64,000 nt of DNA from contig OY776510.1 in assembly GCA_963675665.1 (NCBI GenBank), positions 1,440,001-1,504,000 on the forward strand, read 5' to 3'. Below, in pieces: positions 13,511 to 60,255 of this stretch. The position numbers were made by a program, and so were the translations under genes. The notes beneath the pieces are model-generated. The model searched no databases, was not told the DNA's origin, and was given only the letters and a program-made list of their open reading frames with translations. Origin of the DNA: Spirochaetia bacterium. Lineage in GTDB: Bacteria; Spirochaetota; Spirochaetia; UBA9216. The first letter of the stretch is position 1. The number at the start of each line of letters is the position of its first letter.

Positions 13511-14623
13511 ATGAGAATCGGAGTAGCAAAGGAAATTAAAAGACATGAATACAGGGTCGGACTGACTCCTGCAAATACGAGAGCATATATAAATGCAGGC
13601 CATTATGTATCTGTGGAGGCGGGTGCCGGAATGAATGCGGGTTTTCCCGATCAGGCATATATCGAAGCCGGCGCCGTGATTGAAACCGACAAGAAAAAGC
13701 TGTTTGCTGAAGCCGACATGATTATCAAGGTTAAAGAACCGCTGGCTGAAGAATACGATTTGTTTCATGAAGATCAGATTCTTTATACATATCTGCACCT
13801 TGCAGCCGACGAAGCCCAGGCAAGGGCTTTAATGGCAAAAAAAGTAAAAGCCGTGGCATATGAGACAATAGAGGAGTCCGATCGGTCGCTGCCCTGTCTG
13901 ACGCCGATGAGTGAAATTGCCGGGCGTTTGTCGGTACAGGAAGGTGCCAAGTACCTTGAAAAGCCGTTCGGCGGACGCGGTGTTCTTCTCGGAGGAGTGC
14001 CGGGTGTTCCCAGGGGAAAGGTGGCAATTCTCGGCGGAGGTGTTGTCGGAACCAATGCAGCTAAAATGGCTATCGGCTTGGGAGCGGATGTTACTGTGCT
14101 TGATATCAGCGCAAGACGTCTCGGCTATCTTGATGATATTTTTGAGACAAGAATAACAACTCTTTACAGCAATGAAGAAAATATACAAATGGTTTTAAGA
14201 GAAAGCGACCTGATTATAGGCAGTGTTCTTATTCCGGGCGCAAAAGCTCCACATCTTGTCAGAAGAGAACATCTCGGCATAATGAAGCCGGGTTCTGTTC
14301 TTGTGGATGTTGCCGTTGATCAGGGCGGATGTATTGAGACAACTCATCCTACAACTCATGATAATCCTATTTTTGAAGTAGAAGGTATTATACATTACTG
14401 CGTTGCGAATATGCCCGGAGCGGTGTCTCTCACTTCTACTCTTGCCCTTACGGGGGCTACGCTGTCATACGGTCTTCTTCTGGCGGGAAAGGGCGTAGAA
14501 GACGCCGTAAAAGAGTCTGCTGCATTACGCAAAGGGCTCAATATTTATAAAGGACACTGTGTGTATGAACATGTAGCCGAATCGCTTGATTTGGAGTATA
14601 CTCCGTTAGAGACGCTTATATAG
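13511..14623 (+). CDS. ald: Alanine dehydrogenase
   Basis: MRIGVAKEIK...EYRV, GGGVVG Rossmann motif, VDQGGC and VANMPGAV. Confidence 0.96.
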   Translation: MRIGVAKEIKRHEYRVGLTPANTRAYINAGHYVSVEAGAGMNAGFPDQAYIEAGAVIETDKKKLFAEADMIIKVKEPLAEEYDLFHEDQILYTYLHLAADEAQARALMAKKVKAVAYETIEESDRSLPCLTPMSEIAGRLSVQEGAKYLEKPFGGRGVLLGGVPGVPRGKVAILGGGVVGTNAAKMAIGLGADVTVLDISARRLGYLDDIFETRITTLYSNEENIQMVLRESDLIIGSVLIPGAKAPHLVRREHLGIMKPGSVLVDVAVDQGGCIETTHPTTHDNPIFEVEGIIHYCVANMPGAVSLTSTLALTGATLSYGLLLAGKGVEDAVKESAALRKGLNIYKGHCVYEHVAESLDLEYTPLETLI

Positions 14624-14626
14624 GAG

Positions 14627-14769
14627 GAATGATAAAATTGCTTCCATGCAATTTTATCATTTTGAAGTTGTGAAGCAAAAACTGGAGCGCAGTTTAAACT
14701 GCAACACAGTTTAGCTTTACAACTTCACCTGTTAAAAACCCGCATCCTTGCGGGAATGTTTTATAGGAG
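14627..14769 (+). mobile_element. Putative non-autonomous miniature element (MITE) with IS110-identical ends, inserted in an AGGAG site
   Basis: 14622-14637 (AGGAGGAATGATAAAA) equals IS110 left junction 49729-49744. 14759-14769 (TTTTATAGGAG) equals IS110 right junction 51105-51115. The interior consists of three hairpins. Confidence 0.75.
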
Positions 14770-14778
14770 AAGAGGGAC

Positions 14779-15213
14779 ATGCAGCTGGATGAAACCGATT
14801 GGAAGATTATCAATATTCTGAGAGATTCGCATGTCCCCAACAGCTCTATAGCCCGAACCCTTGATTTATCGGAAGGGGCTATTCGGCAGCGGTTGAAAAA
14901 ACTGAAAGATTCCGGAGTTATGATAGTACGTGGAATGATAAACCCGGACATTCTGGAAAACCAGTTGATAGCAATGGTTGCAGTGACTGTAGCGGAATCT
15001 TCTCTTCTTGAGACCAAGGCAATTGAAATTTCCAAACTGGAAAATGTGCAATCTGTAAACATCACTACCGGGAGATATGATCTATTGGTAGAAGTCCTGG
15101 TAGATTCAAACAAAGGACTTGTAAAATTTCTGACCGGGGAACTCTCACAAGTTAACGGAATCTCTTCAACCGAAAGCTTCATTATGCTCAAGGGTTACAA
15201 TAAGTATATCTAA
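14779..15213 (+). CDS. Lrp/AsnC-family regulator (AldR-like)
   Basis: LDETDWKII, HTH and TTGRYDLL motifs; adjacent to ald. Confidence 0.92.
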   Translation: MQLDETDWKIINILRDSHVPNSSIARTLDLSEGAIRQRLKKLKDSGVMIVRGMINPDILENQLIAMVAVTVAESSLLETKAIEISKLENVQSVNITTGRYDLLVEVLVDSNKGLVKFLTGELSQVNGISSTESFIMLKGYNKYI

Positions 15214-15258
15214 AGTCATAAAAAGATCGATTAACTTTTTATAACTTTCCGTTTTTAT

Positions 15259-16869
15259 TCAGGTTGCCGGATTTCCGGTAACCGGCATCATGGCCGCACC
15301 GTCCGGAAGTTCAGGCTTAAGAAGATACATGTATTTAAACGGATGAATATCAAGTACATTCGGATACCAGCCCTGTAGAATATCGACATTCACCGCATTA
15401 AACGCAGGGTAATTTTCTATGGGAAGAACAAGCGCACCTTCAAGAAGGCGCTTTTCAGCTTCCGCCATCAGCTTATAACGTGACTTTGTGTCTTTTTCCT
15501 TAACCGATTCGTTAAGCAGGGCGTCATACAGGGGATCATTGAACCCGGAGTCATTGAGGTTGCTGTCTGCAGTCCACATCTGGAGAAATGTCAGCGGATC
15601 AGCATAATCGCCAATCCATGATGTTGTACCGAGGGAATAACCGGGTTCTTTAAGGCGTGTGTAATATTCATCGAAATCAGAGACTTCGATATTTACCCTG
15701 ATATCGAGGAATTTTTCCCATTCCTGTTTCATTATTCCAGCTACATACATGCTGTCGCGGCTTTCAGGTATCAGAATATTCAATGTTCCTATGCCTGCTC
15801 CCTTTGTGTAACCAGCTTTATGAAGCAGCTGCAGGGCTTCTGTCATGTTTCGACGGTTGATTCCTTCTGCTTCCGGATAACCGGGAATTCCCGGAACCAG
15901 GCCTGTCGAAGGTAGAAAAAAAGCCTGCGGGCTTCTTATCCGATCCCAGGGCAGGATAAGGCTTAAGCCTCTCCGAACATCAGGATCCTTTAACGGGCCG
16001 TCATGGACCGTAAAATAAAAATAGGTTGTTCCGAAAAGGGGGTTGGTAACAATGTCTTCAGCCCGTTCAAGAGCGCCAAGGAAAACTCCCGAAGGAGCCC
16101 AGTGAATACGGCCGCTATTAAACTCGGTCGTTGCTGTTTCAGCGTCATCGGTGAACCTGATATGAAGTTCATCAAGTTTAACGTTTTCAGCATCCCAGTA
16201 AAGAATGTTCTTCTTGAATACAGCGATATCGTTTTTTCGGGAATAAAGAAAAAATGGCCCGTTTCCAATTGCAGACGGCCCGGCTTTCCATTCTCCATTT
16301 TTAAGATTTAGCGGGTTTACTGGCGAGAAGGAATGGTGACAAAGGATTTTAAGGAAATATTCCGCAGCTTCTTTCAGTTTAATCTCAAGTATCAGAGGAG
16401 TTATAACCTTTATCCCGACTTTGGTTTTATCTGTTATTTTTCCGCTGCGGTATTCGTAAGCTCCCTCGATAATATCAAGCATGAATGAATATTCAGCCCC
16501 TTCGTCAGGGTCGATAAGACGTAACCAGGCGTCACGGAAATCTGATGCCGTTACTGTTTCTCCGTTCCAGTATTTTCCGTCCGGCCGAAGAAAGAAAGTA
16601 TAGGTAAGTCCGTCGGAAGACACAATCCATCGTGATGCGGCCCCGGGTACGGGTTCAAGAGTCAGCGGATGGTAGCCGACCAGTCCTTCGTAGATTGCCG
16701 AGTAAAGCTGGGCTTCTGTGGTAGTATAAGAATGGGCGGGATCAAGTTGAAATTCTCCTGAAGAATAATTCATCAAAAGTATATTCTTGTCTGAATCGGC
16801 AAAAACAGGAGATGTTGTTGAAAGAATTAACAATAATACCGACAGCGCACTTATTACTTTTGTTTTCAA
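15259..16869 (-). CDS. Oligopeptide ABC transporter substrate-binding protein (OppA-like)
   Basis: Signal peptide and family-5 motifs LDPA, YEGLV, GNGPF and WIGDYADP. Confidence 0.9.
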   Translation of the reverse strand: MKTKVISALSVLLLILSTTSPVFADSDKNILLMNYSSGEFQLDPAHSYTTTEAQLYSAIYEGLVGYHPLTLEPVPGAASRWIVSSDGLTYTFFLRPDGKYWNGETVTASDFRDAWLRLIDPDEGAEYSFMLDIIEGAYEYRSGKITDKTKVGIKVITPLILEIKLKEAAEYFLKILCHHSFSPVNPLNLKNGEWKAGPSAIGNGPFFLYSRKNDIAVFKKNILYWDAENVKLDELHIRFTDDAETATTEFNSGRIHWAPSGVFLGALERAEDIVTNPLFGTTYFYFTVHDGPLKDPDVRRGLSLILPWDRIRSPQAFFLPSTGLVPGIPGYPEAEGINRRNMTEALQLLHKAGYTKGAGIGTLNILIPESRDSMYVAGIMKQEWEKFLDIRVNIEVSDFDEYYTRLKEPGYSLGTTSWIGDYADPLTFLQMWTADSNLNDSGFNDPLYDALLNESVKEKDTKSRYKLMAEAEKRLLEGALVLPIENYPAFNAVNVDILQGWYPNVLDIHPFKYMYLLKPELPDGAAMMPVTGNPAT

Positions 16870-49414: not shown

Positions 49415-49723
49415 GTGGAAGCATATTTCAAAAACAAGGAATTGGAAAAGCTTTATACAACAAATAAAAGTAAGAAATACAAACTCGAACAACATGTAAT
49501 AAGTAACTTCTTTGAAGTTGTGGCTATTATCGCAGCCGCAAAGGATATCTATGATTTCAGGGAAAAACCGTCTTTGAATTTTAAAAAAATGAAAGGTTTT
49601 CAAAACAGGTACTCTTTCAGGATCGACAGAAAATACCGGCTTGAGACTGAAATTGAATGGGAGAATGAGAACAAGACGGTAGGAATTATCGGTATTGATG
49701 AAGTAAGTAATCATTACCAATGA
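49415..49723 (+). CDS. higB: HigB (RelE/ParE superfamily, killer-protein type) toxin
   Basis: FKNKELEKLY, PSLNFKKMKG, YSFRIDRKYRL and C-terminal SNHY. GTG start lies 6 nt after TTGACA-17-GATAAT. Confidence 0.85.
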   Translation: MEAYFKNKELEKLYTTNKSKKYKLEQHVISNFFEVVAIIAAAKDIYDFREKPSLNFKKMKGFQNRYSFRIDRKYRLETEIEWENENKTVGIIGIDEVSNHYQ

Positions 49724-49758
49724 TAATAAGGAGGAATGATAAAAAGTCTTCATGAGCT

Positions 49759-49911
49759 GGTGAATTGATATACTGCCTTAACTTTAATTGAGGCAGTAAG
49801 GTTACTGTTCGACATTTTTACTGGTCCGCGAGACCGTTTAGGAGATTGAAGAGCCGTAACCGAAACATTCAATGGTCTGCGAGACCGGATAGGAGAATGG
49901 AACAATTCACC
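49759..49911 (+). ncRNA. Putative IS110 bridge RNA
   Basis: Closing stem GGTGAATTG/CAATTCACC, 5' hairpin 49771-49798, and two GGTC-YGCGA-GACC-centred loops whose flanks match the target and donor sites. Confidence 0.75.
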
Positions 49912-49946
49912 GTATAGGCACTGCTTCAAACTATTGGAGATAGAAC

Positions 49947-51059
49947 ATGAAGATGAGTATTGGCGTGGATCTTCACAAAACGCAGTTTACAGTATGCCTT
50001 TTAAGTGAAGACCGAAAAATTGATCAATTGGGAATGTATCCGACCAGCGGAAATGGTTATGGAGCATTTCTGAAAATGCTGGATGAATATTGTGAAGAGG
50101 AATATGAGTTGAGAGCAGCGGTGGAAACAACCGGGAATGCCCGTTATTTCCGCAATAAACTGTTAAAGGCTGGAGTCGAAGTGGTTGTAGTGAATACTTT
50201 GAAATTCAAGGTAGTGAATGAATCTGTAAAAAAGACAGACAAACATGATGCACGCACCCTGGCGGAGTTTCTTGAGAAAGACATGCTGCCTGAATCGATA
50301 TTATGTTCCCAAGAGAGTGAGGATATTCGAAGGGTGCTGAAATCCAGGTCGATACTGGTAAAATCTGTTGTGTCGTTAAAGAACCAGGTGCATGGCTTAT
50401 TACTTGGTTATGGAATAGAGACCAAACGCGGACAGCTGCAGAGTAAAAAAGAAAGGCAGCGAATCCTGAACGGTCTCGAGGACCACGACTTTTACGGAAG
50501 CGCTGCCAAAACGGTAATACCGTTACTGGATATGATAGATAATCAGGCATCGCAAGTCAAGCAGCTTGAAAAGGTTTTGGCTGAGCTTGTGGAGGACGAT
50601 GAAGATGTTGAGCTTCTGCAGACAATACCAGGCGTGGGTCTAATAACAGCAGCAACAGTAAGAGCCTATACAGACGATATCGGCAGATATGATAGTGCGA
50701 AGAAATATGCAGCAAACGCCGGGCTTGTGCCATGGGTGCAGAACTCAAATATGACAATACATCATGGACATATAACAAAGCGTGGGCCTGTAGAACTGAG
50801 GACAGCCTTCGTACAGATGGTGATGGGAATGGTTCGTATGCAAAAGAAGACCGGGACGTACCGAATAATGACGAAGTATGCAGCGATGAAGAAGCAGAAA
50901 GGCTCGGGTAAGAGTGTAATAGCTGCCGCCCGCAAGATGAGCACTTTGGTATATACAATTTTAAAAACCAGAGAGCCGTTTGATCCGATGAAAATGGCTT
51001 TTAGAAAAGAATACAGGGAAATGCAGGCAGCAGCATGGGAAGCTGTAATGGTCGGTTGA
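49947..51059 (+). CDS. IS110 DEDD transposase (bridge recombinase)
   Basis: GVDLHK (D), AVETTG (E), KTDKHDA (D, D); C-terminal TIPGVG and GLVPWVQNS...GHITKRG with the catalytic Ser. Confidence 0.95.
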   Translation: MKMSIGVDLHKTQFTVCLLSEDRKIDQLGMYPTSGNGYGAFLKMLDEYCEEEYELRAAVETTGNARYFRNKLLKAGVEVVVVNTLKFKVVNESVKKTDKHDARTLAEFLEKDMLPESILCSQESEDIRRVLKSRSILVKSVVSLKNQVHGLLLGYGIETKRGQLQSKKERQRILNGLEDHDFYGSAAKTVIPLLDMIDNQASQVKQLEKVLAELVEDDEDVELLQTIPGVGLITAATVRAYTDDIGRYDSAKKYAANAGLVPWVQNSNMTIHHGHITKRGPVELRTAFVQMVMGMVRMQKKTGTYRIMTKYAAMKKQKGSGKSVIAAARKMSTLVYTILKTREPFDPMKMAFRKEYREMQAAAWEAVMVG

Positions 51060-51121
51060 TATCCGACTAGATCATAAGCTTATATTTTTAGCTTGTGGTT
51101 GACTTTTTATAGGAGAAAACG

Positions 51122-52237
51122 ATGGCAATGATCAGGGATTTAAAACCGGCAGTTTTGATTGGAGCCGGGGATATTATAAAAAGGGAACTTGAATATAACG
51201 GTTGGTCACAGGAAGATCTCGCAGAAATTACCGAGCTTTCAGGAAAAACAATCAGCCAGTTAATAAACAATAAACAACGGGTTACGGTTGAGACAGCAAA
51301 GCTGCTTTCTAATGCATTGGGCTCAAGTCCTGAATTCTGGCTGAATCTGGACAACAATTACAGGCTGCAGCTTGATGATGAAACCGATAAGGAATCAGCA
51401 GTAAAGACGAAGGCTGAAATTCGCAAGTATATGCCGGTTGCAGAAATCTGCAGGAAAGGCTGGTACTGCAGCGACAATACAGCTGAAGGATATAAGTCAG
51501 TATATAAAGATATCTGGAACCGGGATGATATTGATTTTTTTGTCTATGATAATCCGGATATCGAATATTGCGCGCGCAGGTCGAAAGAAGATGAGCAGTT
51601 CACGCAATACTACTCTCAGACCTGGGCGAGGATAGCAAAAAATCATGCAGAGAAAATTGATGTACCTGATTATAATCAGGCTCTGTTAAAAAAAATCTCC
51701 GAAACTCTATCCGAATACACAATTCAACCAAATGGAGTCAGGCGAATAATAAACGATTTAAATTCAGCAGGCGTCAAGGTTTTTGTTCAATCCCATCTAT
51801 CCAAAACATACCTTGACGGAGCCTGTTTCTTTGACGGAAAAAATCCGGTGATTGTTTATACCGCGCGATACGACAGGCTAGATAACTTCTGGTTTACGCT
51901 TGCTCATGAGATCGCCCATGTGCTTCTTCATTTATCTCCTGATAATGATAAATGTTTTCTGGATAATCTCGATTCTGAGAATACAACAAAAAAAGAAAAA
52001 GAGGCTGATGCAGATGCTGAAAAAATGCTGAAAATCAGGGAGATCCTGAAATTGGCAAAGCCGTACAGCAAATATCTTTCCGAAGCGAATCTTCGAAATA
52101 TTTCCGGACAACTGAAAATAGAAGTCTCGGTTATCCTGGGGGTTCTTCAACATCACGGAATAGTGGATTACAGGAAACTGAACAAGTTTAAAACAAAGGC
52201 AACACCTATCTTACCTGTGGAAATAATGATGGGATGA
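51122..52237 (+). CDS. higA: HigA antitoxin (Xre HTH) fused to an ImmA/IrrE-type zinc metallopeptidase domain
   Basis: WSQEDLAE HTH and SPEFWLNL, then RYDRLDNFWFTLAHEIAH (HExxH). Confidence 0.88.
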   Translation: MAMIRDLKPAVLIGAGDIIKRELEYNGWSQEDLAEITELSGKTISQLINNKQRVTVETAKLLSNALGSSPEFWLNLDNNYRLQLDDETDKESAVKTKAEIRKYMPVAEICRKGWYCSDNTAEGYKSVYKDIWNRDDIDFFVYDNPDIEYCARRSKEDEQFTQYYSQTWARIAKNHAEKIDVPDYNQALLKKISETLSEYTIQPNGVRRIINDLNSAGVKVFVQSHLSKTYLDGACFFDGKNPVIVYTARYDRLDNFWFTLAHEIAHVLLHLSPDNDKCFLDNLDSENTTKKEKEADADAEKMLKIREILKLAKPYSKYLSEANLRNISGQLKIEVSVILGVLQHHGIVDYRKLNKFKTKATPILPVEIMMG

Positions 52238-59937: not shown

Positions 59938-60044
59938 ACACCTGTTATACCTTACCAAATGAATAATATATAGATAAAAAAATATCAATATCCCGCTTTA
60001 TTATATTGACTCCTGATTATTTTCATGTTTTCATAGGTTTATGG

Positions 60045-60183
60045 GTTCTCCGAACCGTACCCCCTAAAAGCAAAAGCCGGTATCTGACGGCTTAAAGTTC
60101 ATGGAGTCCGGTCGCGTACCGTCTGCCGACGGTCAAGGGTATATCTGTAAACGGGTATGCCTCCCGTGTTTGGAAAGGGGAAC
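60045..60183 (+). ncRNA. Moco/Tuco RNA motif (molybdenum/tungsten cofactor riboswitch candidate)
   Basis: GTTCTCC...GGGGAAC P1 stem, CCTAA...CATGG receptor-like P2, and AGGGT...GCCTCCCGTGTTTGGAAAGG; lies upstream of a molybdate/tungstate transporter. Confidence 0.85.
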
Positions 60184-60255
60184 GGAATTTACAGTCGGAT
60201 ATTCTGCTTATTCCTTCCCGATGCCCATCGTATTCATCGTGAGGAGGAAATAAAG

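Follow-up and report, generated by a model that had tools for sequence, protein, structure and literature searches.

The ald-lrp Intergenic Element Carries the Ends of an IS110-Family Insertion Sequence

The stretch of DNA analyzed in this work, hereafter the window, comprises 64,000 nucleotides (nt) of a Spirochaetia bacterium whose 5.15-Mb genome (G000) consists of a single contig (window, G000:C1:1440001-1504000). The genes for alanine dehydrogenase (ald) and for a regulator of the Lrp/AsnC family (lrp) follow each other in this window, separated by a spacer that contains a 143-bp element without transposase, and a complete insertion sequence (IS) of the IS110 family, here called IS-A, is located further downstream (Table 1). 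A first-pass annotation, made from the sequence, had proposed that the short element was mobilized in trans by the RNA-guided recombinase of the IS. The results presented here make it rather probable, in our judgment, that the spacer is a non-autonomous mobile element of the IS110 clade that includes IS-A, inserted at the Shine-Dalgarno (SD) sequence of lrp by recombination guided by a bridge RNA. Our provisional view of the target, taken from the insertion sites and the putative guides, is that the bridge RNA of this clade would aim at SD sites (AGGAG) situated just upstream of start codons.

Both junctions of the element were found to match those of IS-A as had been claimed. The left one (14622-14637, AGGAGGAATGATAAAA) is identical in 16/16 positions to the left junction of the IS (49729-49744), and the right one (14759-14771, TTTTATAGGAGAA) in 13/13 positions to the right junction (51105-51117), in both cases in the same order and orientation. 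The 16-mer AGGAGGAATGATAAAA occurs 29 times in the genome, where about 0.002 occurrences would be expected by chance according to our own arithmetic, and these correspond to the 15 copies of IS-A plus copies of a repeat family. The segment 14619-14626, on the left side of the element, contains the stop codon of ald (TAG, 14621-14623) and the old SD sequence (AGGAG, 14622-14626). According to the listing of open reading frames (ORFs), there is no ORF of at least 40 amino acids on the plus strand inside 14627-14769, and thus no transposase gene in the element; on the minus strand, a single mechanical antisense ORF (14694-15191) extends over its 3' part.

RNA folding of positions 14622-14781 gave a minimum free energy of -65.4 kcal/mol (z = -8.9), and none of 200 shuffled sequences was as stable. 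The three hairpins of the first-pass annotation were reproduced (14627-14662, 14663-14727 and 14739-14754); the interior formed by them is no mere filler, being the conserved, covarying core of the Rfam motif TD-2 (see below). The long variant of hairpin 2 is common to four copies of the repeat family, namely the one at ald-lrp and those at 894942, 738950 and 4930172. In the predicted fold, the CCUGU/AUAGG stem of hairpin 3 covers part of the new SD sequence. A classical MITE (miniature inverted-repeat transposable element) is defined by terminal inverted repeats, a target-site duplication of fixed length and a DDE transposase; the 143-bp element differs in that terminal inverted repeats are absent, its ends (GAATGATAAAA... 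and ...TTTTAT) not being mutually inverted and its hairpins being internal.

Table 1. Coordinates of the ald-lrp element, of IS-A and of associated features (positions in the window).
Feature	Position	Strand	Basis or remark
ald, alanine dehydrogenase gene	13511..14623	+	ORF; Pfam AlaDh_PNT_C and AlaDh_PNT_N
Left copy of the 8-nt direct repeat TATAGGAG	14619..14626	+	Pre-existing target; 14618 and 14762 are contiguous in run X7
143-bp transposase-less element, right-hand AGGAG included	14627..14769	+	Member of the three-hairpin repeat; copy 1454622+
Hairpin 1	14627..14662	+	RNA fold; 5' arm GAATGATAAAA equals IS left-end sequence (right-donor half-site, RD)
Hairpin 2 (TTGAAGTTG...CAACTTCA)	14663..14727	+	RNA fold; long variant
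Hairpin 3, inner stem 14739-14754	14728..14767	+	RNA fold; enclosing stem pairs CCUGU with AUAGG
Right copy of TATAGGAG	14762..14769	+	Right end of the element (left-donor half-site plus core); working SD of lrp
lrp, Lrp/AsnC-family regulator gene	14779..15213	+	ORF; Pfam AsnC_trans_reg and HTH_24
IS-A, full IS110-family element, 1387 bp with both AGGAG copies	49729..51115	+	One of 15 copies
Putative bridge RNA	49759..49911	+	Fold z = -4.2; left ends of homologues
Right target guide CAUUUUUAC, tentative candidate	49813..49821	+	CAT would pair with the start codon
Left target guide GUUUAGGAGA, putative	49836..49845	+	Bases 5' of the first internal AGGAG track the left flanks of homologues
Right donor guide CAUUC	49866..49870	+	Complementary to the left end GAATG of IS and element
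Left donor guide GGAUAGGAGA	49887..49896	+	Its AUAGGAG equals the right end of IS and element
IS-A recombinase gene, 370 amino acids	49947..51059	+	Pfam DEDD_Tnp_IS110 (64.9 bits) and Transposase_20 (64.3 bits), both above cut-offs
IS-A right end TTGACTTTTTATAGGAG	51099..51115	+	Restores an SD at 6 nt from the ATG of the following gene

Filled and Empty Sites

An empty counterpart of the ald-lrp site was found in run X7 ("organism B"), which corresponds to a relative around 97% identical. One contig of this run (9748 nt) aligned with positions 14000-14618 (22 differences) and 14762-15400 (14 differences), skipping exactly 143 bases, with the eight letters of TATAGGAG fitting on either side. 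Runs X1 and X6 covered the stretch in pieces only, and run X4 probably stems from the source strain. The spacer between ald and lrp measures 18-58 nt in five other species, versus 158 nt in G000. The compact junction predicted for removal of the element therefore exists, to the base, in run X7, and agrees with the compact arrangement of the five species. The opposite case also exists: in the congener G005 an element is present where G000 shows an empty site (...AAGGAGGATTTAGATG), with an uninterrupted AGGAG followed by 7 nt and ATG.

The Element Belongs to a Genome-Wide Repeat Family Corresponding to Rfam TD-2

Further genomic copies, expected by the first-pass annotation, were indeed located. 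Searches with BLAST and three nhmmer rounds using the left module yielded 49 hits which, after subtracting two palindrome echoes, left 47 elements. The 143-bp element thus belongs to a three-hairpin repeat with at least 47 copies, whose lengths lie between 76 and 164 nt. As to the AGGAG flanks expected for these copies, the first five bases are AGGAG in 27/47 elements (nGGAG in 34/47), and 38/47 end in AGGAG (ATAGGAG in 21/47). GAATG follows the left AGGAG in 23 of the 47, and both donor half-sites are kept in 16; some copies match the left end of the IS over around 25 nt. As for their location, in 37/47 the final GGAG precedes the start codon of an ORF not shorter than 60 amino acids, the distance from SD to start being 5-7 nt in 30 of these 37. 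The remaining ones run up to another unit of a head-to-tail array (7/47) or to a copy of the IS (3/47). The exact word TTTTATAGGAG appears 54 times in the genome, compared with about four occurrences expected from base composition.

Head-to-tail arrays are located at G000:C1:1652331-1652896 (five units), 2973058-2973371 (three units) and 836249-836458 (two units), with periods of 112, 101 and 111 bp, respectively. Units within arrays are 99% identical, the inner units included, and their boundaries reproduce the type of junction expected for a circle (...T-AGGAG-G...).

In the 47 copies, 9 of the 11 base pairs of the hairpin 1 stem are formed in 94-100% of the sequences and the other two in 87% and 89%, with several types of compensatory pairs. 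Hairpin 1 alone was recovered by RNAalifold on a MAFFT alignment of these copies, hairpins 2 and 3 being too variable in length to be aligned in this way. The family corresponds to the Rfam motif TD-2 (RF03162), for which there are 42 matches genome-wide at E ≤ 1, 18 of them above the gathering score; the ald-lrp copy scores 27.9 bits (E = 0.032), under the gathering score of 48.7 bits. The three hairpins of the TD-2 model are, in model order, the reverse complements of hairpins 3, 2 and 1, so that model and element share the same hairpins in the same order on opposite strands. The 2007 description of TD-1 and TD-2 presents them as candidate RNAs restricted to Treponema denticola, assigns them no function, and reports TD-1 to show covariation and to lie mostly 5' of genes (Weinberg, 2007; PMC1950547). 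The present family resembles them in being multi-copy, covarying and, as for TD-1, placed 5' of genes. It differs in its occurrence outside T. denticola and in its proposed link to a mobile element, of which there is no mention in the text consulted on the motifs (PMC1950547). The hairpin 1 consensus of T. denticola also differs from the IS-like GAATGATAAAA of the element studied here. In the open-access literature searched, we found no paper linking TD-1 or TD-2 to an IS.

Another member of the family, at 1792215 (G000:C1:1792115-1792315), starts at an AGGAG which is the conserved 3' end of a molybdenum cofactor (Moco) riboswitch (RF01055, 66 bits). The left AGGAG at this locus is thus a pre-existing target, not part of the cargo. 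The element parts the SD of the riboswitch from the start codon, and the new SD that it supplies looks unregulated. Within the window, a Moco/tungsten cofactor riboswitch (RF01055, 57 bits) at 60036-60196 (plus strand) was the sole Rfam match above the gathering score.

IS-A and Its Homologues Are Found at Translation Starts

The 15 copies of IS-A in the genome are 99.9-100% identical to each other. All of them are followed by ATG at 5-7 nt from AGGAG (6 nt in 12/15), and five of the 15 lie immediately against an element's 3' end. The three bases to the left of AGGAG at these insertions are TAT in 9/15 and TTT in 3/15. The TAT flank agrees better with the donor guide AUAGGAG than with the target guide UUUAGGAG (fully matched by 3/15 insertions only), and this preference resembles published "half-match" insertions.

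A survey of homologues, in which 26 of 80 IS loci of public genomes were examined (22 with an intact ORF), revealed the left-end motif in 23 of the 26. Among the 22 loci with an intact ORF, 19 have the exact right end TTTTATAGGAG, and in 14 of these 19 an ATG is present within 4-14 nt. According to record titles, the homologues come from Syntrophales, Desulfobacterales, Oceanispirochaeta, Marispirochaeta, Alkalispirochaeta, Treponema, Leptospira and Dehalococcoidales, including metagenome-assembled genomes (MAGs). The conservation of these ends across phyla indicates that they belong to the IS clade and, judging from the insertion sites surveyed, the clade as a whole lands at translation starts. 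No paper describing an SD-targeting IS110 element was found in the same literature search.

The copy of IS-A in the window is situated between a short upstream ORF (49500-49728 side) and a downstream gene (51116-51300) whose product (MAMIRDLKP...GWSQEDLAEITELSGKTISQL) looks like an antitoxin of the XRE/HigA type; on reading the sequence, IS-A may have come between a toxin and its antitoxin, at the SD of the antitoxin gene. The genome also harbors a second, unrelated IS110-family element of approximately 1.5 kb with a 387-amino-acid recombinase, present in seven copies 99.4-100% identical (G000:C1:2621202-2622705 and six others, e.g., 553730-555272 and 2818552-2820091). Its target is a different hairpin similar to a repetitive extragenic palindromic (REP) sequence, with ..AACCTCT.ATAAGCCC....GGGTTATTAG on one side of the IS and ..CAGAGGTT on the other. 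One of these copies lies inside hairpin 1 of a repeat element, beside the IS-A copy at 2622803.

A Putative Bridge RNA in the Left End of IS-A

The left end of IS-A would encode a bridge RNA in whose predicted fold a 5' stem-loop (49773-49796) and two guide modules lie within a long-range stem (49759-49767/49903-49911), each module bearing a small GGTC...GACC hairpin. The Rfam search of IS-A returned no family for this left-end RNA, only chance hits. The putative left target guide was compared with the left flank of each homologue: at least 1 nt matched in 22/22 loci and at least 2 nt in 17/22. CAT is found at the position of the candidate right target guide in 23/23 left ends. As to the donor guides, the right one covaries with the left end of the IS, exact complements being present for GCACG (three loci), GTATG (one) and GCATG (one), together with one locus matched through wobble pairs and one with a mismatch. 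The left one includes the dinucleotide AT directly before the second internal AGGAG in 23/23 left ends, so that ATAGGAG (49890-49896) is invariant. By sequence comparison, the junction of a circle formed by the element, TTTTAT-AGGAG-GAATGAT, would satisfy both assigned donor guides, as the first-pass annotation had anticipated; this holds for the guides as provisionally assigned in the left end of the IS.

The characterized element IS621 combines a DEDD recombinase with a non-coding RNA in the left end that contains two guide modules, and has its core repeated at both ends (PMC11208160). IS-A is similar in having a DEDD recombinase, a putative left-end RNA with two modules, a core at both ends and putative short donor guides. 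It differs in that the shared core is AGGAG and the target is the translation start region, and also in the arrangement of the guides: as assigned in IS-A, the guide pairing with the top strand is 5' of the module hairpin and the one resembling the top strand is 3', the reverse of what has been described for IS621 (PMC11208160).

A Probable Non-autonomous Element of the IS110 Clade

At base level, the 143-bp element shows several features of an IS derivative: both ends of the IS in the correct order, no transposase gene, AGGAG target flanks shared with the IS, multiple copies, and filled and empty sites. Its insertion at ald-lrp could be explained as follows. The IS110 recombinase and the bridge RNA would recognize the donor half-sites of the element (GAATG... 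on the left, ...TATAGGAG on the right) through the donor loop AUAGGAG/CAUUC. The element would then be excised or copied as a circle with the junction TTTTAT-AGGAG-GAATGAT, and this circle would recombine into the AGGAG of the lrp ribosome-binding site. With TTTTATAGGAG as its own right end, the element leaves an SD to the downstream gene after insertion. The insertion in turn creates a new landing site, and this would account for the head-to-tail arrays and for the IS copies located immediately behind elements. Old orthologous copies retain their hairpins through compensatory changes, which suggests exaptation; the family is old, many copies no longer have one of the half-sites, and at least some probably serve the host now as structured leaders or intercistronic RNA modules.

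The recombinase would thus act in trans on the element, for which around 11 + 6 bp of end sequence could plausibly suffice. It has been reported that a mini-IS retaining just the ends moved when the transposase and the non-coding region were supplied in trans (PMC11187229), and that excision requires recognition of the donor arm only, according to the half-match result (10.64898/2026.08.31.748434). These two reports make this step plausible for the element. MITEs linked to IS110 elements are already known, and the present element is a variant of that kind. The closest published case is MITEPpu9, registered as the MITE of the IS110-family ISPpu9 in Pseudomonas putida KT2440, which is short and transposase-less, has left and right ends like those of the IS, and exists in several copies, some of them beside the IS; it forms minicircles and uses the enzyme of the IS in trans, or has been proposed to do so (PMC12288879). 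MITEPpu9 differs in carrying the small RNA gene ssr9 and in landing in REP sequences (PMC12288879), whereas the element described here has a three-hairpin interior, around 50 copies and an SD landing site that is regenerated upon insertion, and its family is also present in species without an intact IS.

Several observations weigh against this explanation and against a present-day mobilization of the elements. No intact IS-A was detected in any of 10 genomes of the same family (E ≤ 1e-20), while the TD-2 repeat family is present in 5/5 congeners and in 1/5 other genera, all without intact IS-A. Conversely, one genome with the IS (G028) gave no TD-2 match, and no such repeat family was found in three other IS-bearing genomes checked in detail with a 15-mer from the left end. 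The best dispersed pair, formed by the ald-lrp copy and that at 894942, shows 91.9% identity, and most pairs are under 85%; since the IS copies are 99.9-100% identical, the current burst of the IS has left no trace of moving elements. Similarity between the interior of the element and the IS does not extend past around 25 nt (sequence comparison; IS left end by eye). One or both donor half-sites are missing in 31/47 elements, in which hairpin 1 is still kept through compensatory changes, and in two copies orthologous between G000 and G003 both arms of this hairpin have changed, which, from the sequences compared, would indicate selection on the structure and not on the IS ends. The ald-lrp site itself fits the target loop of the present IS-A poorly, with AAGAGGGAC as its right flank, TAT instead of TTT on the left and an SD-to-start distance of 9 nt. 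Finally, the exchanged sides of the guides with respect to IS621 make the guide assignment provisional.

The first-pass proposal is supported in part, for an element without transposase, between two AGGAG copies, in multiple copies, polymorphic for insertion and with IS ends that match the assigned donor guides; its putative mobilization in trans has against it the absence of an intact IS in the 10 relatives and of near-identical dispersed copies.

Some traces of the clade do exist in the genus. The element copies of congeners bear the same IS-like ends, and the congener G005 has a truncated relic of the IS-A left end (around 100 nt, 86% identity), which implies that the IS-A clade was in the genus before. 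With the left-end 15-mer, run on five other IS-bearing genomes, nine matches were obtained in a Syntrophales MAG, all of them IS copies; 11 in Oceanispirochaeta, corresponding to 10 IS copies and one chance match in a coding region; and 14 in Marispirochaeta, mostly at contig ends. In a Treponemataceae MAG the matches were two IS copies and one left-end-only remnant. This remnant (G044:C2, around position 648239) covers approximately 125 bp, from AGGAGGAATGATAAAA to the AGGAG of the stretch coding for the target guide, with a gene start directly after, and suggests that guide-coding DNA can itself act as a pseudo-target, yielding mini-elements by internal deletion. A similar origin for the 143-bp element, as a deletion product retaining the IS left end, was considered, and by eye its interior showed no similarity to the IS left end beyond those first 25 nt or so.

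Alternative Explanations

The same observations could be accounted for if the repeat were a structured RNA module kept by the host, a "cis-regulatory" motif of the TD-1/TD-2 type that controls access to the SD or mRNA stability and was spread or maintained without IS110. The IS would then merely prefer its 3' end TTTTATAGGAG as a landing site, the shared 5' end being an ancient borrowing with no present role. Such a module would agree with the 18 copies above the TD-2 gathering score, the covariation of TD-1 and its position 5' of genes as described (PMC1950547), the several compensatory pair types and two-sided changes in hairpin 1 (the latter in the G000/G003 orthologues), the partial covering of the SD by the CCUGU stretch in the fold, the persistence of the family in five of five congeners without an intact IS, and the five of 15 IS copies that landed behind elements. 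We nevertheless consider this explanation unlikely, although not negligible: it offers no mechanism for dispersal to around 50 gene starts, nor for a base-precise presence or absence of 143 bp bounded by the IS core, and it leaves unexplained that the consensus 5' end is an IS end conserved across phyla and read by a covarying guide. It is, moreover, compatible with an IS110-derived element as a later stage (exaptation), and so is no strict alternative.

An immobile old relic, with the empty allele generated by replication slippage or recombination between the 8-nt repeats of TATAGGAG, seems to us very improbable. The element is bounded by a direct repeat of that length and its nearest paralogue is just 91.9% identical, as would suit a relic, but the element is also absent from ald-lrp in five further species, so that absence looks ancestral, and the AGGAG-to-AGGAG architecture recurs at other polymorphic loci. 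Still harder to sustain is movement as single-stranded DNA by a Y1 transposase (IS200/IS605, or the REP-associated tyrosine transposases, RAYT), an enzyme type for which subterminal hairpins are the recognition signal, in the manner of REP or palindrome-associated transposable elements (PATE), with insertion 3' of the target word AGGAG. Subterminal hairpins at both ends, orientation-specific insertion, seamless presence or absence and the persistence of the family in congeners without IS-A would all be in line with it, yet the identity of 16-25 nt and 13-14 nt to the IS110 ends would go unexplained. Mobilization by Y1 enzymes was rejected because the single-contig genome contained no match to Y1_Tnp (PF01797) at E ≤ 0.001, whereas control genomes did give matches. 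REP sequences and bacterial interspersed mosaic elements (BIME) with RAYT, and the neisserial intergenic mosaic elements (NIME) and Correia-type repeats, are abundant short intergenic repeats that form hairpins, some of them arrayed and some being landing sites for IS110-family elements. The present case is different: there is no Y1 match in the genome, the termini of the element are IS110 ends, and its location is tied to the SD of the gene that follows.

Implications

An extension of the IS110-derived origin, which we put forward as a tentative possibility, is that the TD-1/TD-2 motifs are the cargo of an old non-autonomous family, made and spread by an IS110 clade with a bridge RNA that reads the SD and the start codon. 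Each insertion would install a portable three-hairpin leader, a fresh SD and a stem covering it, and a cassette influencing translation or mRNA stability might in this way have been distributed across operon junctions, many copies having since been kept by selection. A motif family that has been in Rfam without an explanation since 2007 would thereby gain a concrete origin and a mobility mechanism open to testing. Members of an IS110 clade that target ribosome-binding sites and restore them when inserting would be able to sit in operons without silencing the next gene, and the element, at around 143 bp, would be a natural minimal donor for bridge recombinases. Its old copies with compensated hairpins are candidates for mobile DNA that has become regulatory RNA.

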